A stretch of 64,000 bases of DNA from Patescibacteria group bacterium (GCA_041650995.1 JBAZJZ010000003.1:22662-86661), one strand, 5' to 3'. Positions 19,038 through 36,514 are shown, counted from the first letter of the stretch. The notes: generated by a model from the sequence alone, not told the origin. A program made the numbers and translations.

Positions 19038-19064
19038 TTGTGAGTTTAATCTTAAAATAAAATT

Positions 19065-19307
19065 ATGAACGCACAACAAATCTATATCGCGATGGCCATC
19101 GTAGCCTTAGCCATTATCGCGGGTTTGATGTTTTTTGTTAAAAAGGGAAATCATCAATATAAACTATCTCCGTTTGCTGCTTTAGCGTTTGCATTTGTTC
19201 TCGCAGGAATTGTTTTTGGGGAAAGCAGATTAGTTGGTTATGGTTTAATGGGAATTGGTGTGCTGCTCGCCGTAATTGATATGGTTCAGAAAATGAGAAA
19301 GAAATAG
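19065..19307 (+). CDS. Small membrane protein (80 aa, 2-3 TM)
   Basis: Hydrophobic throughout. ATG start. Confidence 0.4.
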   Translation: MNAQQIYIAMAIVALAIIAGLMFFVKKGNHQYKLSPFAALAFAFVLAGIVFGESRLVGYGLMGIGVLLAVIDMVQKMRKK

Positions 19308-19416
19308 GATTTAAGAAAACAATAAGCCCAAAAAAATCACCTGCCGAGGAGGCGGTTTTTGTTATCCCTTGACCTTGTATAGTTTTTTTTCGCGCGGCGA
19401 GGTAAAATGAAATAAC

Positions 19417-20610: not shown

Positions 20611-20666
20611 CATTTTCCTCTTGGCATTTTAATTGATAGTTTGTATCAAAAAGGGATTTTTTTGAT

Positions 20667-20692
20667 TTATTTTAAGCGACGAAAGTCGTTTT
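20667..20692 (+). terminator. Hairpin terminator after the LCP gene
   Basis: GCGACgaaaGTCGT followed by TTTTAG. Confidence 0.4.
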
Positions 20693-20713
20693 TAGTTTTC
20701 TAAAATTTTATCT

Positions 20714-20748
20714 TGACAAGAATTTTTTTCAATGATAATTTATTGATA
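20714..20748 (+). promoter_or_regulatory. Sigma70-like promoter (TTGACA-16 nt-ATAATT)
   Basis: Consensus -35 at 20714-20719, ATAATT after a 16-nt spacer, upstream of the Cys-rich peptide gene. Confidence 0.4.
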
Positions 20749-20808
20749 TTGTGTTTATGGCGTAAAGTGGGGGAAAGCTCAAGCCGAGGGAAGGAGAGGG
20801 AAGAAAGA

Positions 20809-21072
20809 ATGACGACAAGAACGATTCTCGCTGAGGCCAAGCCGTTGGGGCATCCTTGCGGCCATTGCCGCACTCGCGGAACGTGCGGTTGTGACGTCTG
20901 TGTTCAAGGAGGCGGAGTTTGCGGGGAGTGCGGCGGACTCCGCTACTTCGTTCCTCCAACCACCATTTCCATGGATGAGTTCGATCCTCCACGAGAGGAG
21001 CCTCTTGCCAGAGTGGTCCTCGCCCGGCGGCCGAAGAAGCCACCGTTCGGGAGGAGGGTGGCTCGTCGCTAA
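20809..21072 (+). CDS. Cys-rich small protein (87 aa; 8 Cys in CGHCRTRGTCGCDVCVQGGGVCGECGG)
   Basis: RBS-like GGAAGGAGAGGGAAG before the ATG. Very GC-rich codons. Confidence 0.4.
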   Translation: MTTRTILAEAKPLGHPCGHCRTRGTCGCDVCVQGGGVCGECGGLRYFVPPTTISMDEFDPPREEPLARVVLARRPKKPPFGRRVARR

Positions 21073-21217
21073 TCAGCGCTTGATGCCGCGATCGCGGTAA
21101 GCGCAGCGCTTAAAGTCGTTTGGAGGAAATCGAAAAGTCCGAAGGGAAACAGACAAAAATTGTCGTGTCGCGCTCTGGTGCTTGCATCAGGGCGTTTTTT
21201 TATTTTTAATTTATAAA

Positions 21218-21249
21218 AAAACCGCAAGACAGGTGTCTCGCGGCGGACT
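21218..21249 (-). terminator. Rho-independent terminator (minus strand)
   Basis: Minus-strand hairpin CCGCGAGACAcctGTCTTGCGG followed by TTTTTTTAT. Confidence 0.4.
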
Positions 21250-21329
21250 CTCCTTAATCCCCGTTTTATCTCTCAAGCGGGTTTGCCCTGACTCAAGTGG
21301 TTTCTAGGATTTCTTCTTGAGAAATCCTC

Positions 21330-21575
21330 TTATTTTGGATGGCGCAGGTTGTCCTTCCCGCAAAAGGGGCAATGAGTGACGTTTTCCAGGTAGCCAGACT
21401 GGCCGCCGTCTTCCCGCTTGCTCTCTTCGTAGCCGCAATGCGGACAGACGAGACAGTATTCGTCGACGATACATTGATAGTTGGCGAAATGGCGCTCGGA
21501 ATTCACGTCGCCGACGTAAAGACACTTGCAGTCTTTATGGCACTTCGGACACTTTGGTTTCGTTTCGACCATCAT
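21330..21575 (-). CDS. Double zinc-ribbon small protein (81 aa)
   Basis: CPKC...CKC, CPHC...CPFC pairs. Co-oriented and 15 nt downstream of the 101-aa ORF. Confidence 0.45.
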   Translation of the reverse strand: MMVETKPKCPKCHKDCKCLYVGDVNSERHFANYQCIVDEYCLVCPHCGYEESKREDGGQSGYLENVTHCPFCGKDNLRHPK

Positions 21576-21592
21576 TTTCCCTCCTTTTTCTA

Positions 21593-21895
21593 TCTCTTGC
21601 CCTTGGGGTAAATGTAGCCCCGGTTGCCGTTCGGCAGGACGAAAGAGACTGTTCCGTCGTCCGTTTTTTTGATTAGCAGGTTTTTTCCCAGAGTGAAGTT
21701 TGAGTTGGGAAGATTTTTCCAGGGTCCGCGTTCGGCCGCGAATTGGCGGGCGAAATTCGCGAGCGTGAAGTGGACGAGAATGCCTTCCGGAAAAACCTGC
21801 GTGATGGTTCCCCGGAAAGTGAATCCGTCAGTCTGACAGGTTATCATCACCCGGCCGCAAAGGCCACTTCGGTCAATCAGTTCTCCGAGTGTCAT
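21593..21895 (-). CDS. Hypothetical protein (101 aa)
   Basis: Strong RBS AAGGAGG 5 nt before the ATG at 21895. The track ORF extends to 21943. Confidence 0.4.
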
Positions 21896-21929
21896 TGGTT
21901 CCTCCTTTACCAAAAGGCCCTTGATCAAT

Positions 21930-21966
21930 ATATTTAAGTTCAAATTTTTTAAAATGTCAAGGGATC
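21930..21966 (-). promoter_or_regulatory. Sigma70-like promoter (minus strand) TTGACA-17 nt-TTAAAT
   Basis: The reverse complement reads cccTTGACAttttaaaaaatttgaacTTAAAT, just upstream of the 101-aa ORF. Confidence 0.4.
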
Positions 21967-22065
21967 GCGTCCGGCGCGCTATTTCGTGATATAATAAAAA
22001 CGTTGTTACCTTTTAAATTTTAAAACGTAGATAAGAATAGAAGCTTCTTTAATTCCGGAATTAAT

Positions 22066-22632
22066 ATGGATCCAAACCAAGAAAAACAAATCATTAAAGC
22101 CTGCCAAGCCGGAAATTTTGAGGGTTTTGGTGAGCTCTACGAAGTGTACGTTAAAAAAATATACAGCTTTGTTTTTTACAAAACATATCATAAAGAAACG
22201 GCCGAAGATATTGTCTCGATAGTTTTTATGAAAGCTCTGGAAAATATCGGCTCCTATAAACCCGGCCGCGGGAGTTTTTCCGCCTGGCTTTACGGCATCG
22301 CTCGCCACGCCGTGGTTGATCATTTTCGTGCTGTCCGCCCGAGCGTTAACATTGAAGACGTTTGGGATTTGGCTGATGAGCAAAATTTAGAAATAGATCT
22401 TGACGCACGGGAAAAACTCAATGAAGTAAAAAAATATTTGGCAAAATTCAAGCCAACGCACCGCGAAATTATAATGATGCGTCTTTGGCAGGGATTGTCT
22501 TATCGGGAGATTTCAGAAATTATCGGATTCTCCGAGGCAAATTGCAAAATGATTTTTTCTCGCGAGATGGCAAAGCTTCGGGAGGAAATGGGAATAGTCG
22601 CGTTTTTACTTTTTATGTTTTTAAATATTTAA
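22066..22632 (+). CDS. ECF-type RNA polymerase sigma factor (sigma-70 regions 2 and 4)
   Basis: Region 2 (FSAWLYGIARHAVVDHFR) and region 4 HTH (LSYREISEIIGFSEANCKM). Extended -10 TGATATAAT upstream at about 21985-21993. Confidence 0.8.
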   Translation: MDPNQEKQIIKACQAGNFEGFGELYEVYVKKIYSFVFYKTYHKETAEDIVSIVFMKALENIGSYKPGRGSFSAWLYGIARHAVVDHFRAVRPSVNIEDVWDLADEQNLEIDLDAREKLNEVKKYLAKFKPTHREIIMMRLWQGLSYREISEIIGFSEANCKMIFSREMAKLREEMGIVAFLLFMFLNI

Positions 22633-22645
22633 TCTTAAAAAATAT

Positions 22646-24283
22646 ATGGAAAACTTAATCAAAGAAATAATGGACGAGTTATTTGCCATTGACCCGAGTT
22701 TGAAAAAATATCAAAAAGAATTGGAGGCGGCTACGGCTAAAATGATAGCCAACAAACCCGATGATAGGTTTGATGAAAATTTTCGGCAGGAATTGAAAAT
22801 GAAATTGCTCGCGCGGGCTGAAGAATTGGAAAAAGGAGAAAAAGTAAAATTTTCATTTTGGCGAAGTTTAAAATTTTGGCGGGGTTTTTCTTTGGCCGCG
22901 GTCGTGGCAGCGCTTGCCTTAATTGTCGTAATACCCGCGATTCAAAACGGTCAGTTTAGTTTATTTAATTTTAAAAGCGGCAGTCCGCTGTCTTTAATTT
23001 CCGGGACAATGAATATTGAAGAGGCGGGTGAGCGAGCTTTTGGCGATCTTGCTTCTTCCAGCCAGGCTTTAACTAATTTAGAATTAGGAGATTCATCAGA
23101 CGCTTATTATAGCGCGCCCACGCCCGCCGCCGCGCCGAAAACACAGTCTTCAACTTCGCGCGAAGAAATTCTCGCGCGTGAAGTTTCGGGGCTTGGTGGA
23201 GGTAGCGGAACGAACGCCGCCGCGCCGGACGTAAAAATGTTGCCACCCGAGTACGCGACAAAATATAATTATGTTTACATTGGCGAAGATTTTTCTTTCA
23301 CGGAAGAGAGTGTGGCCGTCTTAAAACGTCTTAAAAGTTATGGCAGTGAAAATCTCAGTTCGGTTTTAAACAATTTAAGCTTTGGACTTTTTGACGCGAG
23401 CAAATTAAGAAATGTTAAAGTTCAATCAATGTCTATTGCCGAGGATCGCGACGGGGGATACGTGGTAGATTTTAATCCTTATGAGGGCACGATTTCTTTT
23501 TACGAAAATTGGCAAAAAATAATGCCGGTTAATTATGAAACCCAGCCGCGACTTCGAGAGTCTGATGTTCCGACAGACGAAAAATTAATTGAGACAGCCA
23601 ATGATTTTTTGTCGCGCTTTGGAATTGACCGCGGAAATTATGGCACGCCAATTGTCGGCCAAAGCTGGAAATTGGGTTATGCCAATGTCCGGGACGAAGA
23701 TATTTGGATTCCTGACACGATGACCGTGCAATATCCGTTGCTCTTGGGCGGGAAGGAAGCTTGGGAGCAGGGCGGTTACGACCGAGCCGGATTTTCCGTT
23801 AACGTAAATATCAGAACAATGAAAGTCACGGGTCTTTACGGACTTACAACACAAAATTATCAAAGTTCAAATTACGCCGCGGAAACTGATAAAAATCGTC
23901 TCTTAAAATTCGCGCTGCAGGGAGATCTTTGGCCGCAGCCAACATATCCGGAAGAAAATTTTAAAGTGAAAGAAGTGGAAATAAAACTTGGCACGCCGAG
24001 CGTGCAATATATGAGATATTGGAAATATGAAGGAAATCAAAGCAGCGAACTTTTTCTTCCGGCTTTGGTTTTCCCGGTAATTGACAAGAGCCAGGCTGAC
24101 GAATATTTTACAAAAAAAGTGGTGGTAGTTCCGCTCGTTCGGGAAATTTTGGATAGCGCGGAAAGAGAAAACACCATTACGCCACCAGCAATTTTAGAAT
24201 ATAGAAAAGACATGGGGTCATCTTCATCTCAGATTTTAACTCCTACTCAGGAGCCCTTGCCGCCAGAGAAGGTTCAGAATTAA
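22646..24283 (+). CDS. Putative anti-sigma factor / membrane-anchored extracytoplasmic protein
   Basis: Immediately downstream of the ECF sigma gene. Short cytoplasmic N-terminus, a single TM (AAVVAALALIVVIPAI), and a large extracytoplasmic domain. Confidence 0.4.
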   Translation: MENLIKEIMDELFAIDPSLKKYQKELEAATAKMIANKPDDRFDENFRQELKMKLLARAEELEKGEKVKFSFWRSLKFWRGFSLAAVVAALALIVVIPAIQNGQFSLFNFKSGSPLSLISGTMNIEEAGERAFGDLASSSQALTNLELGDSSDAYYSAPTPAAAPKTQSSTSREEILAREVSGLGGGSGTNAAAPDVKMLPPEYATKYNYVYIGEDFSFTEESVAVLKRLKSYGSENLSSVLNNLSFGLFDASKLRNVKVQSMSIAEDRDGGYVVDFNPYEGTISFYENWQKIMPVNYETQPRLRESDVPTDEKLIETANDFLSRFGIDRGNYGTPIVGQSWKLGYANVRDEDIWIPDTMTVQYPLLLGGKEAWEQGGYDRAGFSVNVNIRTMKVTGLYGLTTQNYQSSNYAAETDKNRLLKFALQGDLWPQPTYPEENFKVKEVEIKLGTPSVQYMRYWKYEGNQSSELFLPALVFPVIDKSQADEYFTKKVVVVPLVREILDSAERENTITPPAILEYRKDMGSSSSQILTPTQEPLPPEKVQN

Positions 24284-24303
24284 AAATTAAAAAAGAAAAA
24301 TAT

Positions 24304-24336
24304 AGGCGCGGGGCCCCAACCCCGCGCTTTATTATT
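24304..24336 (+). terminator. Rho-independent terminator
   Basis: GCGCGGGGccccaaCCCCGCGC followed by TTTATTATTT. Confidence 0.6.
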
Positions 24337-24427
24337 TAGATAAACTCCAGCCCCAATTTTGCAACTAATTTAGTTTTGTAGATAATTTTTTTTGCCAAGG
24401 ACGGATCTAAAATTTAAATAAATAAAA

Positions 24428-24456
24428 AAAGAGGGACGCGCGGGGCGATCCCTCTG
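24428..24456 (-). terminator. Rho-independent terminator (minus strand) ending the three-paralog operon
   Basis: The minus strand reads AGAGGGAtcgccccgcgcgTCCCTCT followed by TTTTTTTA. Confidence 0.5.
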
Positions 24457-24483
24457 GAGCGGTTTCACGCTCGGTTGTCGGGA

Positions 24484-24816
24484 TTAGTTTGTCTCTTCCG
24501 GCTGGCAGGCGCCAAGCGGCGTGCCGAAGAGCTTCGTGGCGAACGGCCCGGCCGCGATGATGCTTCGCTGCCTCTTCTCGGCATGGCTCTGGAGAGCCGT
24601 CTCGAGATGAGCCTTGAGGCCGATCTGTTCGTCCGCGGAGACTTGCATCACCGCGGCCAGACTGGCCAAAGCGCCAAGGCAGATCTCCCTGTCTGCCGGC
24701 AGCAGGTCTGTCGTGCCCATCATGATGTCGCCCTTCGCGATGGAAAAGAAGCAGCTCTGGCCGTCTTTTGTGAAAGTGATGACCAGGCTGTGCACCATGA
24801 GTTTGAAAGCACCCAT
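24484..24816 (-). CDS. Small Cys-containing protein, paralog A (110 aa), unknown family
   Basis: RBS GGAAGGAGG 6 nt upstream. Shares KLM..., ...CF(F/L)...KG(D/E)I... and (E/R)(I/T)C(L/F)..L..LA(A/V) blocks with the two ORFs upstream. Confidence 0.5.
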   Translation of the reverse strand: MGAFKLMVHSLVITFTKDGQSCFFSIAKGDIMMGTTDLLPADREICLGALASLAAVMQVSADEQIGLKAHLETALQSHAEKRQRSIIAAGPFATKLFGTPLGACQPEETN

Positions 24817-24845
24817 CTTTCCTCCTTCCTTTTCGCGAGTAGTTG

Positions 24846-25175
24846 CTAGTTCAACTGCTGCGCGGCCTCGGTGCGCAGGATGTCGTTGATGATCTTTTCC
24901 GTGAAGAAGTCGCGTCCGACAGCGACCATCGGTCGCGTAGCTCTCTCGTACTCATCGAAAGCCGCGTTCAGTTGGTCCTTGAGCTTGGCGCATTCGGGCT
25001 CTGGGATTTGCTCCAGGTAAGCCACGAACTTTAGGGCCGCAAGGCAGGATCTCCTGGTCGGCCACATGAAAGGAACAGCCGCGAGCTCGACCCTATCCTT
25101 CAGGATGGCGAACGAGCCGTAACAGCAGCCGACGCCGAAGTTGAATTCCAAGGTGTAGGTTGCCTTGTTCTTCAT
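24846..25175 (-). CDS. Small Cys-containing protein, paralog B (109 aa)
   Basis: RBS GGAGGG upstream. Same architecture, more divergent (GCCYGSFAIL...RRSCLAALKFVAYL). Confidence 0.45.
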   Translation of the reverse strand: MKNKATYTLEFNFGVGCCYGSFAILKDRVELAAVPFMWPTRRSCLAALKFVAYLEQIPEPECAKLKDQLNAAFDEYERATRPMVAVGRDFFTEKIINDILRTEAAQQLN

Positions 25176-25244
25176 TTTTTAACCCTCCCTCTTTGGTCCG
25201 TCCGAGCCTTTCGCGCGGGCGGCCTGATTCCAAGAACCCAAACT

Positions 25245-25499
25245 TTACGGTTGACGTGTCTCGGCGTCGTGTTTTCGGAAAGCTTCCTCCAGCTGTGCAC
25301 GGAGATTATTCTGCTCCTCCTCCGGGACACCGTTTGACACAGCCAGGTTTTCCAGGACGCGAAAGCAGGTTTCCTGGTCTGCTTTGACCGGCGGCGCGAT
25401 CGCAACCAAGATCTCGCCTTTCTGAACGATGAGAAAGCACGTCGAGTCGCCGTTCATCCAACTCACCGCCAAGGCATACCTCATGAGCTTTGCATCCAT
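25245..25499 (-). CDS. Small Cys-containing protein, paralog C (about 84 aa)
   Basis: ATG at 25499 with GGAGGG 9 nt upstream (the track start 25517 is TTG). KLMRYALAVSW...STCFLIVQKGEIL...ETCFRVLENLAV aligns with paralog A. Confidence 0.45.
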   Translation of the reverse strand: MDAKLMRYALAVSWMNGDSTCFLIVQKGEILVAIAPPVKADQETCFRVLENLAVSNGVPEEEQNNLRAQLEEAFRKHDAETRQP

Positions 25500-25552
25500 T
25501 TTCCCCATTCCCTCCAACCCTCGCTCGTTTGAGAGTACATTATTTTATATCA

Positions 25553-25592
25553 TTTTTATCAGAGAATTGTCAAGAGGCAGGGGGTTTACTTT
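25553..25592 (-). promoter_or_regulatory. Sigma70-like promoter (minus strand) for the three-paralog operon
   Basis: The reverse complement reads cTTGACAattctctgataaaaaTGaTATAAA (-35 plus extended -10). Confidence 0.4.
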
Positions 25593-25646
25593 AAAGAGAT
25601 TTTCTGGGATAATTGGGGAAAGATTTGTTAATTTATTTTATAAAAT

Positions 25647-28600
25647 ATGAATGGTCAATTCGTGAAAGAATTTGTCTCCACAATTTCGGAAAAATATAAA
25701 ACCGGTCAGGCAAAAGAGATGGCCTATCGGCCGGCGCTTGAAAAACTATTTCAAGATATTACCGGCTTGAATGTGATAAACGACCCCAAGCGGAGCGAAT
25801 ACGGCGCGCCGGACTTTGTTTTTATAAAAGGTAAGATTGCCGCCGCTTATGCCGAAGCCAAAGACCTGGGTGTGTCGCTTGACGAAACGGAAAAGGGCGA
25901 GCAGATGGCACGTTATTTTGGTTATCCGAATTTAATTTTGACAAATTGTTTGGAGTTTAGGTTTTTTAGAAATGGAGAAAAATATGAAACCGTAAAAATT
26001 GCTGAAATAAAAAATAGCGAAATCGCGTCGGTTGAAGATAGTTTTAATCTTTTGGAAGATACACTCTTGGCATTTATCAAAGAAGCCAAAGAGCCGATTA
26101 AGTCCGGTGTTGTTCTCGCCAAAGTGATGGCCGGCCAGGCGCGGCGCATTCGCGACAATATCAAAAAATATTTAAAAGAGGGCGACGAAAAGAAAAATGA
26201 AAGTTTGATTGCCGTTTATAATACTATTAAAAAATTATTACTCGCCGATTTGGATCACGAAAAATTTGCCGATATGTACGCCCAGACAGTTGTCTACGGT
26301 TTATTCGCGGCTCGCTATCATGATAAAACGGCAGACACTTTTTCTCGTGGAGAGGCGCGCGATTTGGTGCCAAAATCCAACCCATTTTTACGTAAATTTT
26401 TTGACCACATTGCCGGAGAAGATTTTGACGAGCGCGTAGAGTTTATTGTCAATGAACTCTGCGAAGAATTTAAGCACGCCGATATTCAGGCGATCGTGCA
26501 TGATTATTACAAAGTGGAAAAGGACGACAGCCGCGACCCGATTGTTCATTTTTACGAAGATTTTTTGCAGGAGTATGATGCGGCCGAACGAAAAAAGATG
26601 GGAGTTTTTTATACCCCCTTGCCGGTGGTGTGTTTTATTGTTCGCGCGATTGATGATGTTTTGAAAAAAGAATTTGGTCTAAACGGTTTGGCTGATACTT
26701 CCAGAACGGAAATAAAAGGGTTGCAGGGAATGAAGGCAAAACAGTCGGTTCACAAAGTTCAAATACTTGATCCGGCGACCGGTACCGGCACATTTTTAAA
26801 CGAAGTGATTTTGCAAATTAAAAAATCATTTGTCGGACAAGAGGGCCGATGGTCAAGTTATGTTCGTGATGATTTACTGCCGCGGTTGCACGGATTTGAA
26901 ATAATGATGGCGCCGTACACCATCGCCCATCTTAAACTTTCCACGCTTTTGAAAGAAACTGGAGTGGATATAAAAGACGAACGTATAGAAATTTACCTCA
27001 CTAATTCTCTGGAAAAAGCGGATAAATATGATGATACGCTTTTTGCCGGTTTAGGTTTTGATAAAGCTATCACGGAAGAATCTCGTTTAGCCGGAAAAGT
27101 TAAAAATGATTTGCCAATAATGGTAGTGCTCGGCAATCCGCCGTACAATGTCAGCTCACAAAATAAAGGCGAATGGATCGGCGAGTTGATAAAAGATTAT
27201 AAAAAAGATCTGGATGAAAGGAATATACAACCTTTATCCGATGATTATATTAAATTTATCCGCTTCGCCCAATATCTTGTAGACAAAAATGGCGAGGGAA
27301 TTATTGGGATGATTACCAACAATTCTTACATTGACGGAATTACCCATCGCCAAATGCGTAAAAATCTTTTGGAAACTTTTGATAGTATTTATATTTTGGA
27401 TTTGCACGGCAATGCTAAGAAAAAAGAAACCGCGCCCGACGGCAGCGTTGATCAAAATGTATTTAGTATAATGCAAGGCGTGTCCATCGCGCTGTTTGTC
27501 AAAAAAGCAGGCAAGAAAAAATCACTCGGCACGGTTTATCACGCTGAATTATTTGGAAAGCAAAAAGACAAATACGAGGCGTTGAATAATTTTGATTTTG
27601 AAAAGATGAAATGGAATAAGATTGATTGCAAGGATCCGTATTACTTTTTTGTGCCAAAGGATTTTAGAGCAGAGGATGAGTATAAAGAGGGGATCAGCGT
27701 AACTAATTTATTTCAAAAATGGGCTTCGGGAGTTGCTACTGCGAAAGATGACCTGATAATAAAATTTTCAGTCGATGAGATCAAGGAGCTTCGCGCCAGT
27801 TTTAGTAGATATTCAGATCAAGAGATAGCGCAGAAATACCAAGTCGACCAGAAAAAGGTTGTTCAAGTCAGAAAGGATATGGATAACGTTATTGGCGAAT
27901 ACACCCCTATTTTATATCGACCATTTGACACAAGATATACCCTTTACTCTCCGAACAGTGAAGGCGTGTTTCAAAGACCAAGGCCAGAAATAATGAAGCA
28001 CTTGTTAAAAGACAATTTGGCAATTTTAACATGTAAACAACAGACTAGTTTTGATTTTCAGCATGTATTTTTGTCAGCGACAATTACAGATCGATGTGGT
28101 GTTTCATTACAAACCGGTGAAGTCGGATATGTTTTCCCTCTTTATCTTTATGCCGACGACGGATCAAAAATTCCGAATCTCAAAAAAGAAATTGTGGCTG
28201 AAATAGAAAAAATTGTCGGCAAGGTGACGCCGGAAAATGTTTTGGATTATATCTACGCCGTTTTGCACTCGCCGAGTTATCGCGAAAAATATAAAGAATT
28301 TTTGAAGATAGATTTTCCGCGGGTGCCGTATCCGAAAAATGAAAAGCGATTTTTCGCGTTGGCAAAATTGGGCGAGGAGTTGAGGCATCTGCATTTGTTG
28401 GAAAGTTCGAAGGTTGAAAAATTTATTACCACTTATCCCGAGGCAGGGGATAATTTGGTGGAAAAAGTTGTCTATAAAGATGGAAAAGTTTATATTAATG
28501 CTTCGCAATATTTCGGTGGCGTGCCGGAAATCGCCTGGAACTTTTCCATCGGCGGCTATCAGCCGGCGCAGAAATGGTTGAAAGATCGCAAAGGCCGCAA

Positions 28601-28697
28601 ACTCTCCAACGCCGACATTGAACATTATCAAAAAATTGTTGTGGCGTTGGTGGAGACGGATAAACTTATGAGAGGAATTGATAAAGTTAATAAATAA
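25647..28697 (+). CDS. Type IIG restriction enzyme / N6-adenine DNA methyltransferase fusion (MmeI-like)
   Basis: N-terminal PD-(D/E)xK-like GAPDFVF...AEAKD. Gamma-class MTase motif I ILDPATGTGTFL and motif IV VVLGNPPYN. Long C-terminal target-recognition region. 1016 aa. Confidence 0.7.
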   Translation: MNGQFVKEFVSTISEKYKTGQAKEMAYRPALEKLFQDITGLNVINDPKRSEYGAPDFVFIKGKIAAAYAEAKDLGVSLDETEKGEQMARYFGYPNLILTNCLEFRFFRNGEKYETVKIAEIKNSEIASVEDSFNLLEDTLLAFIKEAKEPIKSGVVLAKVMAGQARRIRDNIKKYLKEGDEKKNESLIAVYNTIKKLLLADLDHEKFADMYAQTVVYGLFAARYHDKTADTFSRGEARDLVPKSNPFLRKFFDHIAGEDFDERVEFIVNELCEEFKHADIQAIVHDYYKVEKDDSRDPIVHFYEDFLQEYDAAERKKMGVFYTPLPVVCFIVRAIDDVLKKEFGLNGLADTSRTEIKGLQGMKAKQSVHKVQILDPATGTGTFLNEVILQIKKSFVGQEGRWSSYVRDDLLPRLHGFEIMMAPYTIAHLKLSTLLKETGVDIKDERIEIYLTNSLEKADKYDDTLFAGLGFDKAITEESRLAGKVKNDLPIMVVLGNPPYNVSSQNKGEWIGELIKDYKKDLDERNIQPLSDDYIKFIRFAQYLVDKNGEGIIGMITNNSYIDGITHRQMRKNLLETFDSIYILDLHGNAKKKETAPDGSVDQNVFSIMQGVSIALFVKKAGKKKSLGTVYHAELFGKQKDKYEALNNFDFEKMKWNKIDCKDPYYFFVPKDFRAEDEYKEGISVTNLFQKWASGVATAKDDLIIKFSVDEIKELRASFSRYSDQEIAQKYQVDQKKVVQVRKDMDNVIGEYTPILYRPFDTRYTLYSPNSEGVFQRPRPEIMKHLLKDNLAILTCKQQTSFDFQHVFLSATITDRCGVSLQTGEVGYVFPLYLYADDGSKIPNLKKEIVAEIEKIVGKVTPENVLDYIYAVLHSPSYREKYKEFLKIDFPRVPYPKNEKRFFALAKLGEELRHLHLLESSKVEKFITTYPEAGDNLVEKVVYKDGKVYINASQYFGGVPEIAWNFSIGGYQPAQKWLKDRKGRKLSNADIEHYQKIVVALVETDKLMRGIDKVNK

Positions 28698-28715
28698 TTT
28701 TTTAAAAGTTATTAT

Positions 28716-29549
28716 ATGTGGAGGGTTAAACCGCATACAAGAGAAAAATTGGAATATTTCAGAAAGTATATCGAAGCATATACAACCGCAACTAAAAAAC
28801 TACCTTTGAAATATTATATTGATGCTTTCGCCGGAACAGGAAAGTGTGTCCTCTGCGGTGAAAAATGCAGTTCGGAGGGGTGGTCAAGATGTGAAAAGTG
28901 TGGCAGAGGTAATTTAATTGATGGATCGGCATTGATTTCCTTAAAAATAAAAAATAAATTTAATGGTTATTTATTTGTTGAGCTAAATAAAAAAAGTTTT
29001 AAAATTTTGAATAATTTAGTGATTTCTGAAAAAAGTAATGTCTCTCCATCCATTTCAGTGAAAACACGCAATGATGATTCGAATAAACTACTAAAAGATT
29101 TGTATAAATATATACCTTCTCGGGCTGGCTGTTTGGTATTTCTAGATCCGAAGGGCGCCGAGCTTTATTGGGAAACCGTTGTCTCCTTATCAAAGATTAG
29201 AAAAGTAGACATCCTCATTTTGTATCCTTATGACATGTCTCTTGTAAGATTAATCAGAGATTATCCAAAAAAATTAGATCTTTTTTATGGCTCTACGGAT
29301 TGGTCGAATGTTTATAACTCGAAAGATAATTATAATGAGAAGAGAAGGAAAGAAGCGTTATTAAGTTTTTATAGGGAAAATTTAAAAAAATTAGGATTTG
29401 AGTACGTTGTCTATAAACAGATAAGAAGAAATTTAAGATCTGGCAAGGCTCTTTATCATTTAATTTTGGTGACACATAGCTCCATCGGCAAAAAAATTAT
29501 GGAGAATATCTTTGATAAAGAGATAGATGGGCAGACAAAGCTTTGCTAG
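28716..29549 (+). CDS. Protein with MTase motif-I-like DAFAGTG plus a CxxC-x9-CxxC zinc ribbon; resembles 'three-Cys-motif partner protein (TcmP)' annotations
   Basis: YYIDAFAGTGKCVLCGEKCSSEGWSRCEKCG. 277 aa, about 30-33% GC. The TcmP assignment is from memory of family descriptions, not verified. Confidence 0.4.
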   Translation: MWRVKPHTREKLEYFRKYIEAYTTATKKLPLKYYIDAFAGTGKCVLCGEKCSSEGWSRCEKCGRGNLIDGSALISLKIKNKFNGYLFVELNKKSFKILNNLVISEKSNVSPSISVKTRNDDSNKLLKDLYKYIPSRAGCLVFLDPKGAELYWETVVSLSKIRKVDILILYPYDMSLVRLIRDYPKKLDLFYGSTDWSNVYNSKDNYNEKRRKEALLSFYRENLKKLGFEYVVYKQIRRNLRSGKALYHLILVTHSSIGKKIMENIFDKEIDGQTKLC

Positions 29550-29576
29550 AGTGGTTTTTGTTGTTATAATATAAGT

Positions 29577-30443
29577 ATGAAAAAGGCGGGGGAGATACAA
29601 AGGAAATCGCTTTTGTATAAAAGCGGCGTGGAGTACGCCGACTATTGTATTAATCACGCCGAAGGCTGCTCACACGGTTGCAGGTTTCCTTGCTACGCCA
29701 TGATGATGAAAAAACGGTGCGGTGTGATAAATAGTTATGAAGATTGGATCAAGCCCAAAATAGTTGCGAACGCCTTGGAACTTTTGGATAAAGAAATTCC
29801 AAAATTGAAAGATAAAATTAAAGTTGTTCACCTTTGCTTCACAACTGATCCATTCATGTATAAGCAAAAAGAAATTTCCGATTTGACTTTGAAAATTATA
29901 AAGAGACTGAACGACGATAATATAAAGTGCACGGTACTGACAAAAGGTGTCTACCCCAAGGAATTAATTGACGTTGAAAAATACGGCGGAAATAATGAGT
30001 ATGCAATCACGCTCGTATCTTTGAATGAAGGATTTAAAAAAAGATTTGAGCCGGGAGCCGCGCCGTACGAAGATAGGGTAAAATCTTTAAAATATTTGCA
30101 TGACCATGGATTGAAAACCTGGGTAAGCATGGAGCCGTACCCAACGCCGAACTTAGTGGATCAGGATTTAAAGAAAGTTTTGGCAAAGATTAATTTTGTT
30201 GATAAAATTATTTTTGGGAAATTGAATTATAACATTAAGGTGACAGAATTTCAGGACAATAAAGATTTCTACGATGGTTGCGCAAAAATTGTTATAAATT
30301 TTTGTGAGAAAAATAATATTGGATATCACATTAAATACGGAACTCAGAAAAAAGACAACAAAAAAACGGAAAAAATTTTTCGAAAGGATTTTGTTTCCGA
30401 GAAACAGAGACGGGTTGATTGTTTAGAGCCAGTATATTTATAG
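29577..30443 (+). CDS. Radical-SAM-like protein with a non-canonical Cys cluster (C-x6-C-x3-C-x3-C; SplB/COG1533-like)
   Basis: CINHAEGCSHGCRFPCYAMM near the N-terminus, 288 aa, 28 nt downstream of the previous gene, same low GC. Confidence 0.45.
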   Translation: MKKAGEIQRKSLLYKSGVEYADYCINHAEGCSHGCRFPCYAMMMKKRCGVINSYEDWIKPKIVANALELLDKEIPKLKDKIKVVHLCFTTDPFMYKQKEISDLTLKIIKRLNDDNIKCTVLTKGVYPKELIDVEKYGGNNEYAITLVSLNEGFKKRFEPGAAPYEDRVKSLKYLHDHGLKTWVSMEPYPTPNLVDQDLKKVLAKINFVDKIIFGKLNYNIKVTEFQDNKDFYDGCAKIVINFCEKNNIGYHIKYGTQKKDNKKTEKIFRKDFVSEKQRRVDCLEPVYL

Positions 30444-30457
30444 AAAACAGATTTTTA

Positions 30458-30487
30458 AAAAAGTGGCCCTTGCCACTTTTTCTTTAC
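30458..30487 (+). terminator. Bidirectional hairpin terminator
   Basis: AAGTGGCccttGCCACTT flanked by A- and T-tracts on both sides. Confidence 0.5.
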
Positions 30488-30577
30488 CGCAGCTCAAATC
30501 TCAATGTTTGTGAAGAGTGGTCTTGAATTTAAAACAAAAAGCCCCTCAAAAAGCTGACGGGAATTTTACTCAATCAA

Positions 30578-30763
30578 CTAAATTGTGGAGTCCACAATAT
30601 CAGCCGACCAAGCAATCAATTTTACTCGACTAGCAGAATTAATAGAGGCTTGCTTTGAGGAGTAAGCCTCACTCGCAGCGACCTTCTCGCCGTTTATGGC
30701 TTGAAGGCGCCATCTATGATATCCAGCAGCGTCTTTGTAAATGACGAATCGAGGATTTGTCAT
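30578..30763 (-). CDS. DUF1508 (YegP/UPF0339) domain protein, 61 aa
   Basis: FVIYKDAAGYHRWRLQAINGEKVAASEAYSSKQASINS matches the YegP repeat consensus (F.lykd..G.fRfrL.a.NGe.ia.SegY.sK). Confidence 0.7.
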   Translation of the reverse strand: MTNPRFVIYKDAAGYHRWRLQAINGEKVAASEAYSSKQASINSASRVKLIAWSADIVDSTI

Positions 30764-31077
30764 ATTTGTTCCGTTTATTTTTATTTAATCTAGGGAGTCG
30801 ACCTTTACGCTGCTCCCTTCTTCAAAACCTGTTTAGATTCTGAAGGAGAGAGGTAAAGGTGACTTAATCTAGAAAGAAATAAAAGTCCCGGAATATCCCG
30901 CCAGCTTTTCAAAGAGCTTTAACAGTAATTTTATCAAGGATTATTTTAGGGGTCAATGGTTTATGAAAAAAATATTTTATCTCATAATTTTTTCCATCGT
31001 AATTTTGAGATCAGCCGGTTGGCGCAAAGCAAAAAATTGTCCTTAAAAAATTTAGAACATCACAGACATAATAAAAT

Positions 31078-31584
31078 ATGACTCTTGAACAAAAAATCGC
31101 CAAAGCATTTAGGATGGATGAGAAAACTCGTCAACGACATTCAAATCCCTGGAGCGTCTATTCGCGTTTTTCCATGATCCCGCTCCTTGGTTTGGCATTC
31201 TGGAGCAGGGTATGGCTCGGTTGGTGGTCACTCGCGCTGATTGCTGTTGTGCTTTTATGGGTTTGGACAAATCCTCGAATTTTTTCTGCGCCAAAAAGTA
31301 CTAACAATTGGGCATCTAAAATAGTGCTTGGCGAATGGGTTTGGATGAATCGAAAAAACGTACCTGTGCCGACACATCATCAATACGCGCCCAATATCCT
31401 TTCCGCAATCGGAGCGATTGGCGCAATCCCTTTTATCTGGGGCCTGTACGCGCTTGAAATATGGCCGGCGGTTTTTGGCGGCGTTGTTATTGTCATAAGT
31501 AAATTGTGGTTTGCGGACCGCATGGTATGGTTATATGAAGATATGAAAGACGCCACGCCAGAATACAAAAGTTGGCTTTATTGA
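31078..31584 (+). CDS. Trp-rich integral membrane protein (168 aa)
   Basis: 3-4 predicted TM segments. Shared 18-nt motif upstream. Confidence 0.4.
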   Translation: MTLEQKIAKAFRMDEKTRQRHSNPWSVYSRFSMIPLLGLAFWSRVWLGWWSLALIAVVLLWVWTNPRIFSAPKSTNNWASKIVLGEWVWMNRKNVPVPTHHQYAPNILSAIGAIGAIPFIWGLYALEIWPAVFGGVVIVISKLWFADRMVWLYEDMKDATPEYKSWLY

Positions 31585-31642
31585 TTAGTTTAGTGATGTT
31601 TTTTACCCTGCAAAATTGTCCTTAAAAATAATTTAAAAATCC

Positions 31643-32290
31643 ATGAATAAATCTTTTTCAATATTTATTACAATCATTATTATCTTTGTCTTTGCCGCAA
31701 TGGCGTATTGGTTTTTAAGCACACAAATTAATCTTTCCGAAGTAAATAACCCAATTACAAATCTTGTAAACAACGCAGCGCCTAGCGCGGTTTCCGGAAA
31801 TAATTTGAATCAAAATCAGCCGAGTGGTGAAAACGTTTTGGCCACTGATGATTTTTCTTTAACTTATCCGGCTGGCTGGCGGTCGGCTCCGGCAATAACT
31901 GGCGTGTCGGCTATGATTGTCAAGGAAAATGAAAACATTGCCGATCCCGAGGCCAAGAAAATGAATTTTCAAACTTATTTGGCTGTTGCCTATGATTCCT
32001 CTGAAGGGCAAACAAAAGACGAAGTTGTGGAATATTTGAAAAACGAGTTGCGCGCGGTAATTCCCGAAATAGTTTTTTCCCGCGAGAATTTTTTAACTGT
32101 AAATGGGCGCGAAGTCTACGCCACGGAAATAACTTTCCGTAAAAGCGGACTTGATTTTCATGTGCTGGAAGTTCTTGTTTGGGGAAAAGAAAATGACCTC
32201 TGGGTGCTTTCCTACAATACTCTGGAAGAATTGTGGCAAGGATATGTTTCTGATTTTGAAAAAATTACACAGTCGTTTATTGTGAAATAA
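31643..32290 (+). CDS. Secreted / membrane-anchored protein (215 aa)
   Basis: N-terminal signal or anchor, SFSIFITIIIIFVFAAMAYWFL. Confidence 0.4.
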   Translation: MNKSFSIFITIIIIFVFAAMAYWFLSTQINLSEVNNPITNLVNNAAPSAVSGNNLNQNQPSGENVLATDDFSLTYPAGWRSAPAITGVSAMIVKENENIADPEAKKMNFQTYLAVAYDSSEGQTKDEVVEYLKNELRAVIPEIVFSRENFLTVNGREVYATEITFRKSGLDFHVLEVLVWGKENDLWVLSYNTLEELWQGYVSDFEKITQSFIVK

Positions 32291-32301
32291 AATATAAAAA
32301 T

Positions 32302-32961
32302 ATGAACAAAACTTTACTTATCGTCGCCGTTCTTGTTTCAATCTTAATTATCGCCGGGCTTGTCGTGGGTATTTTTATTTTGCTTCCTAAAATTTTTGTC
32401 GCGCCGATATCCGCGCCGGTGGCTTGCACTCTTGAAGCTAAACTTTGTCCGGACGGAAGTTATGTCGGCCGAGTTTTGCCGAGCTGCGAATTCGCGCCGT
32501 GTCCCGATAAAATTTCATACGAAAGCGAGCCGCGTATAGAAAATAGTGAATGGAAAATTTGGAGTGATGGTGTGATAGAATTTAGTTATCCGGAAAAATT
32601 GACAGCGAAATACATTGATACTGTTGAATGGCCGCCGAAAGTGATGATCGCGACAGGCGAATTTTCTTGCGCGGAAACTCCGGCGGAAAGCAGCCTGCCG
32701 GAATTTGTGGCGCGGCGGATGGTGGATGACAGAGTTTATTGTGTGAGAGCGGTAAATGAAGCCGCGGCTGGCAGTGTTTACTCAACTTACACATATTCCA
32801 CCGCGCGCGAAGGAAACATTATTGTTTTGGATTTTATTTTGCGTTATCCGCAATGTTTAAATTATGATGATCCGCAAAAAAGTGAATGCCAAGCGGAGCG
32901 GGAAACATTTGATTTGGACAGCGTGGTAGACCGGATTGTGGAGACAGTGATAATTGAGTAA
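32302..32961 (+). CDS. Membrane-anchored extracytoplasmic Cys-containing protein (219 aa)
   Basis: N-terminal TM, 9 Cys in the exported part. Confidence 0.4.
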   Translation: MNKTLLIVAVLVSILIIAGLVVGIFILLPKIFVAPISAPVACTLEAKLCPDGSYVGRVLPSCEFAPCPDKISYESEPRIENSEWKIWSDGVIEFSYPEKLTAKYIDTVEWPPKVMIATGEFSCAETPAESSLPEFVARRMVDDRVYCVRAVNEAAAGSVYSTYTYSTAREGNIIVLDFILRYPQCLNYDDPQKSECQAERETFDLDSVVDRIVETVIIE

Positions 32962-33204
32962 TCGGTAATTAGTAATTGAAAAGCGGTCCGAGCGGCCGCT
33001 TTTTGGTTTATAAAATTTTTTGTGGTAAAATTATAAAATAAAAATAGTTTTAATTTTTAAATTTGGGAAATTATGAAAAAACTTTTTGAAGGAGGGACAA
33101 AAGGTCGAATAGATCCCGCAGCATTGCAGGACCGAATAGATCCCGCAGGATTGCGGGACAGGCTCTTTGAAAATTCCGCCTTTGGCGGGAAAGGAGAATG
33201 GAAA

Positions 33205-33798
33205 ATGAAGAAAGGGATCATGCTCGTGACGGCACTCGTTGGCGTGCTGGTTTTGGTCGGTTGGGGTTGCGGGAATTCCGCGGCGCCCACTGACACAAAC
33301 TCGGATATGAATGTTTCCGAGACTTCCTCAGACAGCGTGCCAGAAGTCACGTCCGACACGACCGGAGAAATTCCGGCCGGTTGGACAGAGTACAGGAACG
33401 AGCAGTGGGGGGTGAATTTCATTTACCCCGCGGGCTGGCAGTACCAAGAGTATAGCGAGACAGTTGAAGGCGAAGAGGTGGCGACCCTCGCTTTCTCAGA
33501 CCAGGAGTTGCCAGAAACTTTGCCGCCAGAACCTTTGTTTCCGATCATGGTTTTCCGCGACGCGAGGACCGTAGAAAGCGCAATGTCTGACTACACGGAG
33601 GCTGTTGCTGCGGAAGATATCACGCTCGGGAGTAGAGTAGTAAAAAAGATTATTTACTACTCTAATATTCTCGAACAGAACGACAGGGTCTATCTAATTC
33701 CTCTGCGTGATGGGATTTTGAAACTCTTTGTACCAGATAGTGCGAGTTACGTTTCCACGGCTGAAACCATGATTGCCAACCTTACTGAGACAGAGTAG
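33205..33798 (+). CDS. Putative lipoprotein (GC-rich)
   Basis: RBS AAGGAGA 7 nt upstream. Signal peptide with LVGWGC lipobox-like cysteine. The track ORF starts upstream at 33073. Confidence 0.45.
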   Translation: MKKGIMLVTALVGVLVLVGWGCGNSAAPTDTNSDMNVSETSSDSVPEVTSDTTGEIPAGWTEYRNEQWGVNFIYPAGWQYQEYSETVEGEEVATLAFSDQELPETLPPEPLFPIMVFRDARTVESAMSDYTEAVAAEDITLGSRVVKKIIYYSNILEQNDRVYLIPLRDGILKLFVPDSASYVSTAETMIANLTETE

Positions 33799-33808
33799 GA
33801 GACAGACA

Positions 33809-36388: not shown

Positions 36389-36416
36389 GCGACGGAGAAC
36401 AGCGAAGAGCCGAAAC

Positions 36417-36463
36417 AAAACCGTTTCTCGTTGAGGGAGGAGAGACGGTTTTTATTTTTGACT
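36417..36463 (+). terminator. Rho-independent terminator
   Basis: ACCGTTTCTCgttgagggaggaGAGAGACGGT followed by TTTTATTTTT. Confidence 0.5.
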
Positions 36464-36494: not shown

Positions 36495-36514
36495 AAGAAT
36501 ATTAATTTTGAATT

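Follow-up and report, generated by a model that had tools for sequence, protein, structure and literature searches.

Independent gene modules at a variable Patescibacteria locus, and a widespread, uncharacterised TcmP/radical-SAM cassette among them

Introduction

Downstream of an ECF sigma/anti-sigma gene pair in a Patescibacteria group bacterium (GCA_041650995.1), 6.4 kb of DNA hold three small minus-strand genes, a large restriction-modification (RM) gene, a gene pair of low GC content and a DUF1508 gene. A sequence-only reading had taken this stretch (24428-30790) for one accessory or defence island whose combination of genes it did not recognise as a described system. Do these genes form one system, or one island, and what might the gene pair in their midst do? 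We examined the locus within a window of 64,000 nucleotides (JBAZJZ010000003.1:22662-86661), the whole stretch analysed, to which all coordinates refer.

Results

The genes, three terminators and composition steps noted from the sequence all lie where they had been placed (Table 1), and the three terminators, proposed as strong ones, all fold well (z -3.0 to -3.7). Pfam, NCBIfam and PADLOC searches bore out the families guessed for the genes, namely Type IIG RM, the methyltransferase-like protein (TcmP, three-Cys-motif partner protein), radical-SAM enzyme and DUF1508. Per-gene GC averages 43% in the window (sd 5.9). It is 55-59% in the small genes smA, smB and smC (z +2.0 to +2.7), 40.1% in the Type IIG gene (z -0.5), rightly described as native in composition, 32.7% in the TcmP gene (z -1.8, the window minimum), 36.1% in the radical-SAM gene (z -1.2) and 45% in the DUF1508 gene (z +0.4). 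TcmP has the lowest GC of all; the description of the two-gene cassette as markedly AT-rich goes slightly too far, for GC is also only 34-36% in genes at 54-56 kb. Moreover the window is patchy throughout, since further GC-rich patches occur at 20.7-21.9 kb and 33-36.4 kb.

Table 1 Features of the locus, with positions in the 64,000-nucleotide window.
Feature	Position	Strand	Description
Intrinsic terminator after anti-sigma gene, bidirectional	24304-24329	.	10-bp GC-rich stem; -20.8 kcal/mol, z -3.6
Intrinsic terminator of sm operon	24428-24456	-	Stem then U7; -15.3 kcal/mol, z -3.7
smA	24484-24816	-	110 aa; small paralog 1, GC3 0.79
smB	24846-25175	-	109 aa; small paralog 2, GC3 0.79
smC	25245-25517	-	90 aa (84 aa from the start chosen by gene callers); small paralog 3
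Promoter-like site upstream of putative RM operon	25585-25613	+	TTTACT-17-GATAAT with TG; consensus match only
Type IIG (DrdV/MmeI-like, 'Type IIL') RM enzyme	25647-28697	+	1016 aa; PADLOC, Pfam and PDB matches
Segment differing from closest relative L108	28687-31611	.	TcmP, radical SAM, DUF1508, DUF6653
TcmP (three-Cys-motif partner protein)	28716-29549	+	277 aa; predicted SAM-methyltransferase fold, Cys-rich Zn-ribbon-like insert
Spore-photoproduct-lyase-like radical-SAM enzyme	29577-30443	+	288 aa; conserved C31-X3-C35-X3-C39
Bidirectional terminator closing putative RM-TcmP-radical-SAM operon and DUF1508 gene	30458-30487	.	A6-stem-loop-T5; -12.1 kcal/mol plus strand, -14.5 kcal/mol minus strand, z -3.0
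DUF1508 (YegP-like)	30578-30763	-	61 aa; own transcription unit; PF07411 41.5 bits vs 22
DUF6653 membrane protein	31078-31584	+	168 aa; PF20358 217 bits

Alignment by blastn with the closest relative, L108, showed synteny over 19000-28686 and 31612-36738 (73-85% nucleotide identity). Conservation of gene order is therefore divided: the sm and Type IIG genes are syntenic in L108, but 28687-31611 is absent and its site holds 0.8 kb with one NYN-domain gene, 5 bp downstream of the RM ortholog. In two more distant relatives, L061 and L062, the same anti-sigma gene is followed by PDC-S14, a Type II RM, Fic and a radical-SAM-SPASM gene. Because L108, L061 and L062 differ in cargo at the site, known defence genes included, the site is a variable defence/accessory hotspot, in agreement with the suspected accessory or defence character. 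It does not follow that 24428-30790 was acquired recently as a single genomic island, as the sharp composition steps and the terminator at each end might suggest. This we find hardly credible: the synteny of the sm and Type IIG genes in L108 contradicts it, the modules have three different compositions, and the ends of 24428-30790 show no integrase, transposase or flanking repeat. Furthermore, the sm genes adjoin the sigma/anti-sigma genes within a clade of relatives; at least six assemblies have them beside the anti-sigma gene, the closest readable relatives included. Across 58 loci the TcmP/radical-SAM pair travels without any of the other four modules. The 6.4 kb thus consists of independent pieces, neither one system nor one island, and the proposal of a single unit has to be given up.

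The smaller pieces can be dealt with briefly. The three sm genes all have coding periodicity (GC3 0.67-0.79 vs GC2 0.36-0.44) and matched nothing in Pfam, NCBIfam or PADLOC. smA is 36-38% identical to smC (E 1e-12) and 28% identical to smB (E 1e-7), with no BLASTP alignment between smB and smC; the paralogy proposed for them is thus real but distant, being found in two of three pairs. Their orthologs in L108 are 73% (smA), 94% (smB) and 54% (smC) identical, and the smB family, which has another member in L062 (62%), is very rare, with 21 matches in 1.84 billion representative proteins. They are fast-evolving, GC3-rich small paralogs. The DUF1508 gene is absent from L108, and none of the 58 loci has one near the pair. 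The DUF6653 gene lies between two identical 17-bp direct copies of a motif (31033-31049 and 31612-31628), of which L108 has a single 16/17 copy and no DUF6653 gene with it. These last two genes are unrelated small units.

The 1016-aa protein matches PADLOC REase_MTase_IIG (PDLC03610, 941.7 bits), Pfam Type_ISP_C, its C-terminal target-recognition domain (269.5 bits), and the N6_Mtase and Eco57I models; MmeI_Mtase scores 24.5 bits, under its 27-bit cut-off. The best PDB sequence matches are DrdV (7lo5, 1.4e-47, about 690 residues aligned), LlaBIII and LlaGI. The layout of nuclease, methyltransferase and recognition domain is that of the DrdV/MmeI-family Type IIG ('IIL') enzymes; unlike the Type ISP enzymes LlaGI and LlaBIII, it has no helicase. 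In the translation, the N-terminal PD-(D/E)xK nuclease motif (P54-D55...E70-A-K72) and gamma-class N6-adenine methyltransferase motifs I (D375-PATGTG) and IV (N497-PPY) are intact and, with the recognition domain also there, the gene looks intact. Its product would cut unmethylated DNA and N6-methylate its own recognition site. The L108 ortholog is 72% identical at the amino acid level with the recognition domain swapped, and the window enzyme looks like an ordinary family member with nothing notable about it.

Both genes of the pair had been suggested for comparison with the three-Cys-motif family models. The 28716 ORF passes TIGR04474 (151.9 bits, cut-off 53), is identical to a protein annotated as TcmP in NCBI and matches PADLOC PDC-M41A (121 bits). 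In TcmP-DUF5131 pairs (TIGR04474; PDC-M41) TcmP is likewise accompanied by a small Cys-motif Fe-S/SAM-type enzyme, and we confirmed this standard pairing in Synechococcus phage Ssp-JY39, whose DUF5131 neighbour scores 311 bits. The 29577 ORF also adjoins TcmP and has three conserved cysteines, yet it lies outside DUF5131 (PF07505, Gp37/Gp68; 19.4 vs 28.9 bits, N-terminal part only) and is instead a larger enzyme of the PF04055 type resembling spore photoproduct lyase (SPL). Even with the limit relaxed to E<=10 it gave no match in PADLOC, PDC-M41B included, and the PDC-M41 system, which needs M41A and M41B, is not present since M41B is missing. PADLOC would catch only TcmP at such loci because it is without a model for this radical-SAM partner.

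To follow the pair across genomes we surveyed 58 genomes of many phyla, which gave 53 informative loci. In 45 of these 53, TcmP and the radical-SAM gene are neighbours or form one fused gene: TcmP lies directly upstream on the same strand at 41 loci, the two are fused at three or four and divergent at one. TcmP and the radical-SAM protein are therefore a unit. Radical-SAM identity is 55-83% over Patescibacteria, Smithella, Nanoarchaeota and MAGs labelled Actinomycetota, Planctomycetota or Clostridiales. This high identity across phyla, the occurrence of the pair on 13 IMG/VR contigs and its absence from L108 mark it, as judged from sequence comparison, as mobile. The two partners differ in their rate of change, median identity at the same 36 loci being 69% for the radical-SAM protein vs 25% for TcmP (Spearman 0.24). 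The nearest radical-SAM relatives accompany another TcmP class, and viral contigs carry two TcmP paralogs per one radical-SAM gene. Because of this difference in identity, the class switch and the doubled TcmP, TcmP would fit a swappable targeting subunit.

The sequence of RM enzyme followed by the pair, singled out in the sequence-only reading, proved to be a recurrent context. In L024 a complete Type I hsdM-S-R operon leads directly into the pair; Type IIG genes lie upstream of it in L018, L023, L049 and L050; Type III Mod and Res genes adjoin it on nine viral contigs; the closest TcmP homolog has a DNA methyltransferase neighbour; and in L029 a NACHT NTPase stands beside the pair. RM or DNA-methyltransferase genes occur at no fewer than 16 of 57 loci, a raw count, uncorrected for genomic background. 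Most loci have no RM gene within 8 kb, and some neighbours are housekeeping genes (MreB, tRNA synthetases).

In the window, the RM, TcmP and radical-SAM genes follow one another on one strand, 18 and 27 bp apart, and the only terminator comes after the radical-SAM gene. We infer, the gaps and the lack of an intervening terminator being our sole grounds, that the three are probably co-transcribed. The promoter-like site before the RM gene sits in a 129-bp divergent intergenic region; another such site directly precedes the radical-SAM start codon. The same arrangement, together with Type IIG homologs adjoining the pair in L023 and L029, could be taken to mean that the three genes are an obligate restriction system in which the RM enzyme owes a further modification, or a licensing step, to the pair. 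We consider this distinctly improbable, as the RM ortholog in L108 does without the pair and has the NYN gene in its stead, a homolog of the window RM gene is found at only 2-3 of 58 loci, the neighbouring RM type varies (I, IIG, III) or is lacking at most loci, and GC is 40% in the RM gene vs 33-36% in the pair.

Structural comparison gave further indications on the function of the pair. The TcmP model has an RlmJ/Trm1-like SAM-methyltransferase fold, with these two as best structural matches and no PDB match at sequence level. The likeness to RlmJ (23S rRNA m6A2030) and Trm1 (tRNA m2,2G26) is one of fold, with 12-16% identity; TcmP differs from both in its mobility, its hypervariability and its link to a radical-SAM partner, and its methyl transfer is putative. 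The radical-SAM ORF belongs to its superfamily by PF04055 (58.7 bits) and a partial TIM-barrel fold. Its conserved cluster motif is G-C31-x-H-G-C35-x-(F/Y)-P-C39-Y-A, that is CX3CX3C, the canonical CX3CX2C being absent, and the cluster loop (residues 28-51) is of low confidence in the model (pLDDT <50). The top structural match is SPL, a DNA enzyme, and the RNA methylases RlmN and Cfr are among the weaker matches.

Could the pair then be a DNA-repair module, in which the SPL-like enzyme reverses a lesion recognised by TcmP and has no role in defence? Homologs carry the JGI label 'DNA repair photolyase', SPL is the top match, and Rv2578c, which a study of the M. tuberculosis LexA regulon reportedly mentions, is among the nearest NCBIfam families. 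However, the repair-family models all score far under cut-off (PA0069 50.8 vs 360 bits, Rv2578c 49.3 vs 430, mob_pairB 47.8 vs 410), so that none of these families was assigned. SplB (PDB 4fhc) is 11% identical and longer, and no SPL-family HMM matches; SPL has CX3CX2C and no TcmP partner. The likeness to SPL/COG1533 families is one of fold only. A repair enzyme, moreover, would need neither a hypervariable, swappable partner nor two partner paralogs, and one would not expect it to recur in operons with restriction genes of Types I, IIG and III. Repair as the sole role is thus quite unlikely.

Discussion

TcmP is already known through NCBIfam, and TcmP cassettes are listed as the unvalidated PADLOC candidates PDC-M41 and PDC-M30; the pair is thus in part described already, though none of these has been characterised. 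Their embedding in RM, BREX or DISARM loci has led others, independently, to propose such cassettes as candidates for defence (bioRxiv 10.1101/2024.01.29.577857).

The two predicted folds point to nucleic acids. RlmJ and Trm1 are RNA enzymes, and since they act on RNA an RNA target is possible. The pair might accordingly be a housekeeping rRNA- or tRNA-modification pair placed in a variable region by chance, which would suit the RlmJ, Trm1, RlmN and Cfr matches, the housekeeping neighbours and the radical-SAM protein itself, which is extremely well conserved and abounds in Patescibacteria metagenomes (over 7600 clusters). We nevertheless hold this to be unlikely: the closest relative lives without the pair, which is scattered over distant phyla and DPANN archaea (55-80% identity) and sits in Type III RM/AbiU/recombinase islands of viral contigs, TcmP evolves far too fast for a reader of conserved RNA, and the radical-SAM protein finds its best fold match in a DNA enzyme. 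For its part, the radical-SAM protein is conserved to a degree that is odd for a defence gene.

Among radical-SAM enzymes just one other has been described as acting on DNA, the SPL-like gp53 of phage M6, a radical-SAM isomerase of thymidine hypermodification tied to the restriction arms race (PMC8989533). It modifies DNA bases and resembles the window enzyme by description; its 5-hmdU/glycinyl pathway uses kinase and PLP enzymes, which are absent here.

A hotspot of independent pieces that includes TcmP and the radical-SAM protein as a DNA-directed modification or defence module is an explanation to which we give an even chance. The best reading of the pair itself, we infer, is a two-subunit module of this kind. 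Because natural fusions exist, TcmP and the radical-SAM protein may make up one enzyme. Both proteins are basic, and TcmP, with its RlmJ/Trm1-like base-flipping fold and variable insert, would be the subunit that selects the target and binds it, the nucleic acid being most likely DNA; on the base so presented, the highly conserved SPL-like subunit would carry out radical chemistry by means of a [4Fe-4S] cluster and SAM. The result would be a covalent DNA modification that serves phage defence together with restriction systems or in parallel to them. The TcmP/radical-SAM cassette, still uncharacterised, is widespread and repeatedly found beside restriction systems.

Layout and composition of the locus

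The genes under study lie between the ECF sigma and putative anti-sigma genes and a run of membrane-protein genes that starts at 31.6 kb. [quoted passage not shown] The three terminators named in a sequence-only reading of the region held up (folds of -20.8, -15.3 and -12.1/-14.5 kcal/mol, z about -3 to -3.7). This layout implies a first transcription unit of the sigma and anti-sigma genes, closed by the first terminator, a second of smC-smB-smA on the minus strand and a third of RM-TcmP-radical-SAM on the plus strand, whose genes lie 18 and 27 bp apart without an internal terminator. It likewise implies that DUF1508 and DUF6653 are each a separate unit. A good sigma-70-like promoter match (TTGCTA-16-TG-TATAAT) ends 7 bp upstream of the radical-SAM ATG, so that this gene may have a transcript of its own as well, possibly a near-leaderless one.

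Features of the window and of the comparison loci (L108, close relative; L061 and L062, more distant relatives sharing the anti-sigma gene; L063, another relative; other L numbers, further loci)
Feature	Locus	Position	Strand	Remarks
RNase P RNA and six tRNA genes	window	1277-1737; 12666-12737; 18966-19038; 41563-41639; 50002-50329; 63391-63469
GC-rich small genes	window	20713-21943; 24484-25517
GC-rich small genes	L062	3872-4099
GC-rich small genes	L063	2-334
ECF sigma gene	window	22066-22632
Putative anti-sigma gene	window	22646-24283
smA, smB, smC	window	24484-25517	-	no family match
Type IIG RM gene	window	25647-28697	+	1016 aa
Divergent part of Type IIG gene	window	27150-28200		residues ~501-850
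Type IIG ortholog	L108	6016-9057
TcmP gene	window	28716-29549	+	277 aa
Promoter match	window	29543-29570
Radical-SAM gene	window	29577-30443	+	288 aa
DUF1508 gene	window	30578-30763	-	61 aa
17-bp direct repeat	window	31033-31049; 31612-31628
DUF6653 gene	window	31078-31584	+	just beyond the range of the sequence-only reading
M23 peptidase gene	window	33773-36388		871 aa
NYN-domain gene	L108	5351-6010	-	219 aa
Alternative cargo past the anti-sigma gene	L061	1998-7800
Alternative cargo past the anti-sigma gene	L062	2381-3740
Full Type I hsdM-hsdS-hsdR operon, overlapping TcmP start, then radical-SAM	L024	1557-10371		Falkowbacteria genome
Type IIG genes beside pair	L018, L023, L049, L050, window			L023 also SNF2 helicase
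ResIII helicase	L032
Type III Mod and Res, then AbiU/AIPR and serine recombinase	8 viral contigs			e.g. L072 5938-15537
Type III Mod and Res	L077
DNA MTase	L112			closest TcmP homolog
NACHT NTPase; two radical-SAM copies	L029	8864-20050

The steps in composition claimed in the same reading are real. Against a per-gene GC mean of 43% for the window (sd 5.9), the sm genes stand at 55-59%, the RM gene at 40%, TcmP at 32.7%, radical-SAM at 36.1% and DUF1508 at 45%. Additional GC-rich and AT-rich patches occur elsewhere in the window, so that composition alone is weak evidence for recent transfer. A GC-rich 'ORF' at 1274-1630 is explained by the gene for RNase P RNA (bacterial class A, 181.8 bits), and another outlier, at 54% GC, is an M23 peptidase with Cys-rich MopE-type repeats that is kept in L108 (65% aa identity).

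The three small genes are paralogs as proposed, though distantly related, and their family had only 21 matches at E<=1e-3 in 1.84 billion representative proteins. They are clearly coding (GC3 of 0.67-0.79 in the window and 0.90 in the L062 homolog of smB), and a structured RNA was rejected because their codon periodicity is strong and Rfam gave no match. The codon changes counted between smB and its L062 homolog are 32 non-synonymous and 11 synonymous, an excess which indicates that the sm proteins are fast-evolving. The small genes around the sigma/anti-sigma pair (z119, z81, z117 and smA-C) have 51-59% GC in a genome of roughly 41%; GC3 is 0.64-0.79 in five of the six, and z119 has no codon-position periodicity (0.55/0.55/0.56). 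Because this GC bias is kept in relatives, high GC is no mark of recent transfer here. Nothing that we found connects the sm genes with TcmP or with the RM gene.

A hotspot for accessory genes

The 48.8-kb contig of L108 is collinear with window positions 19000-28686 and 31612-36738 at 73-85% nucleotide identity. All three sm genes are present in it (73%, 94% and 54% aa identity) together with the Type IIG gene (72%), and the sm genes adjoin the anti-sigma gene in five more assemblies of the same lineage. In place of window positions 28687-31611, which hold the TcmP, radical-SAM, DUF1508 and DUF6653 genes, L108 has a 0.8-kb stretch bearing a single NYN-domain gene. The latter begins 5 bp past the Type IIG stop codon; its product had no match in PADLOC or PHROG and is possibly a further accessory effector attached to RM. 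We conclude that the sm operon characterises the clade, that the RM gene is an older resident and that only this replaced segment is strain-specific.

The distant relatives (anti-sigma identity 62-78%) carry quite different genes downstream of the anti-sigma gene: a radical-SAM-SPASM gene with a Cys-rich peptide, the PADLOC candidate defence system PDC-S14, a Type II MTase with an REase, and Fic. In L061 and L062 the SPASM enzyme adjoins an 80-aa Cys-rich, RiPP-like peptide, and the REase, of DUF262/HNH type, lies beside the DNA MTase. Different cargo at the same site across relatives indicates a hotspot for accessory, largely defence, genes. The proposal of a mosaic accessory/defence island at 24428-30790 therefore stands as to the type of site and falls as to the single unit, since the sm and Type IIG genes are collinear in L108; that the whole range, with its steps in composition, is one island is very improbable.

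No integrase bounding the region was found among the gene calls of the window, and no convincing repeat bounds the island or the pair, with the exception of a perfect 17-bp direct repeat (AAAATTGTCCTTAAAAA) flanking DUF6653. One copy is the ancestral sequence 5' of the next gene; L108, without DUF6653, has one near-identical copy (16/17) upstream of that gene. On this sequence comparison DUF6653 looks like a gene-cassette insertion that duplicated the promoter region.

The Type IIG protein is a standard DrdV/MmeI-like enzyme of an already known, unremarkable kind. In agreement with the initial call it scored 942 bits on PADLOC REase_MTase_IIG; it aligns with DrdV (1.4e-47) and also with LlaBIII and LlaGI, and its PD...ExK, DPAxGxG and NPPY motifs are all intact. 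The window and L108 orthologs share 82-98% identity over residues 1-500 and 851-1000 and only 18-60% over residues 501-850; this is a swap of the recognition domain, implying another DNA specificity. DUF1508, a bona fide member of its family as initially assigned, is likewise a known and unremarkable kind, and neighbourhood comparison across the pair loci gave no link to any other module.

The TcmP and radical-SAM genes form a mobile pair

Database relatives of the radical-SAM protein number more than 7600; the top 120 all share at least 69% identity with it and are mostly from Patescibacteria. A scan of species-representative genomes yielded 58 loci (pattern-based locus searches being non-exhaustive) in many phyla and Nanoarchaeota, as labelled in MAGs that may contain binning errors. 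TcmP lies immediately 5' of radical-SAM on the same strand at 41 loci and is fused to a radical-SAM domain at three or four, L051 and L052 among them; one locus is divergent, five are cut by contig ends and eight, mostly from non-CPR lineages or doubtful matches, have no TcmP. Viral contigs gave no relatives in a single-sequence scan and 13 true relatives in a profile scan of IMG/VR; at eight loci a long TcmP gene is followed directly by a short one and then by a single radical-SAM gene. Plasmids yielded only distant radical-SAM proteins (27-30% identity). Adjacency and fusions show that the two genes form a unit, and this unit is mobile and accessory. It is very common in candidate-phyla-radiation bacteria, and especially common in Patescibacteria.

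The two partners evolve asymmetrically. At the same 36 loci median pairwise identity is 69% for radical-SAM versus 25% for TcmP (Spearman 0.24). The radical-SAM proteins nearest that of the window are paired with long-class TcmPs, while the TcmPs nearest that of the window are paired with more distant radical-SAM proteins, which indicates that partners have been exchanged.

All-vs-all clustering of 656 neighbouring ORFs, called by a simple longest-ORF rule, revealed no third conserved partner gene; the largest non-pair cluster was a DNA MTase at nine loci. An obligate three-gene system made of the pair and this RM enzyme is improbable; they share a transcription unit in the window, and L108 has the RM gene without the pair. 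A suspected terminase-like cluster (four loci) was dropped because it had no Pfam match.

Association of the pair with restriction genes is recurrent: such genes lie directly beside it in the same orientation (see table), and an RM or DNA-MTase gene occurs within 8 kb of the pair at no fewer than 16 of the 57 genome loci, as a raw count. Among the neighbours are also genes of a clearly housekeeping kind. On IMG/VR contigs L066, L069-L073, L075 and L076 a compact operon-like block runs long TcmP, short TcmP, radical-SAM, Type III Mod, Type III Res and AbiU/AIPR, with a serine recombinase and a DUF2800 PD-(D/E)xK nuclease close by. The radical-SAM copies of L029 are 70% and 52% identical to that of the window, the latter belonging to the lineage of fusion proteins; this locus also has a Type IIG gene (39% identical), and its NACHT NTPase has 1363 aa.

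The two proteins and their nearest known kinds

TcmP, correctly called MTase-like in the first reading, passed NCBIfam TIGR04474 and matched PDC-M41A, the TcmP component of the PADLOC candidate system PDC-M41. Its AlphaFold model (pLDDT 90.9) has a class I SAM-methyltransferase fold, with motif I (D36-AFAGxG) and a Trm1-like motif IV (F-L-D144-P-x-G) among the invariant positions. The subfamily of the window has a Cys-rich, Zn-ribbon-like insert (Cys 44, 47, 51, 59 and 62). Variability is spread along TcmP and not confined to one domain, and so speaks neither for nor against a discrete recognition domain. Both proteins are basic (pI 9.6 for TcmP, 9.1 for radical-SAM), and PDB sequence searches with them gave nothing useful.

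The family already has a name and has been put forward as a defence candidate. The TcmP-containing PDC-M30 and PDC-M41, like the other PDC candidates, were drawn from genes lying inside BREX, DISARM or Type I RM loci, and most of these candidates are unvalidated (bioRxiv 10.1101/2024.01.29.577857). Further family members occur in surroundings of a defence type: in S. meliloti one adjoins the Hna defence gene (PMC12445080), and in Gordonia phage BaxterFox another is flanked by the genes for the repressor and the integrase. In the literature searched, TcmP, DUF5131, PF07505, TIGR04474, PDC-M30/M41 and Rv2578c/PA0069 had incidental mentions only, and no characterisation.

The second protein is a radical-SAM enzyme, as had been read from the sequence, by the generic PF04055 model and no other family. 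It scored well under the cut-offs of the DUF5131, PA0069, Rv2578c and mobile-pair-B models, a BFVD fold search with its model gave generic radical-SAM matches only, and PADLOC gave no match even at E<=10. Its cluster motif, C31-X3-C35-X3-C39, is conserved and one residue longer than the canonical form. Whereas the canonical partner of TcmP is DUF5131, as in Synechococcus phage Ssp-JY39, that of the window resembles spore photoproduct lyase (SPL). SPL and DUF5131 share one megacluster in RadicalSAM.org (PMC9477430), which fits an enzyme intermediate between both. The only radical-SAM enzymes acting on DNA that we found described are SPL and the SPL-like gp53 of phage M6, which acts in hypermodification (PMC8989533, 2021). 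The specific partner, an SPL-like radical-SAM protein with CX3CX3C, is neither described nor modelled in the sources searched and is very abundant in Patescibacteria. Lesion repair, as a function for a pair with such an SPL-like member found next to restriction genes, is rather improbable.

A proposed role in DNA modification

Both folds belong to enzymes acting on nucleic-acid bases. Modification of RNA by the pair is unlikely. In the DNA mechanism that we favour, TcmP would bind DNA and select or flip the target base, as a specificity/modification subunit would, the radical-SAM subunit would carry out 5'-deoxyadenosyl-radical chemistry on that base, and the outcome would be modified DNA that serves restriction-type defence or works alongside it. 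We hold this overall picture, DNA targeting and defence role included, to be evenly balanced between right and wrong, and place much more confidence in the locus anatomy alone. It is possible rather than probable that the pair is a new two-subunit DNA-modifying immune module, in which a fast-diversifying, swappable methyltransferase-fold subunit picks the DNA target and a conserved radical-SAM enzyme uses radical chemistry to install or destroy a base.

If such a module is real, its enzyme would be the first of the radical-SAM kind with a demonstrated modification of cellular DNA within restriction-type defence. Nature supplies a comparison here: downstream of the same RM enzyme stands either the pair or an NYN-domain gene. 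The locus also exposes a detection gap, because PADLOC recognises only TcmP and has no model for the radical-SAM partner family. The abundance of the pair matters since the defence repertoire of candidate-phyla-radiation bacteria is poorly known, and a mobile, widespread, RM-linked combination that joins a base-flipping methyltransferase fold to an SPL-like radical-SAM enzyme makes a concrete candidate for new chemistry on DNA, be it in immunity or in epigenetics.
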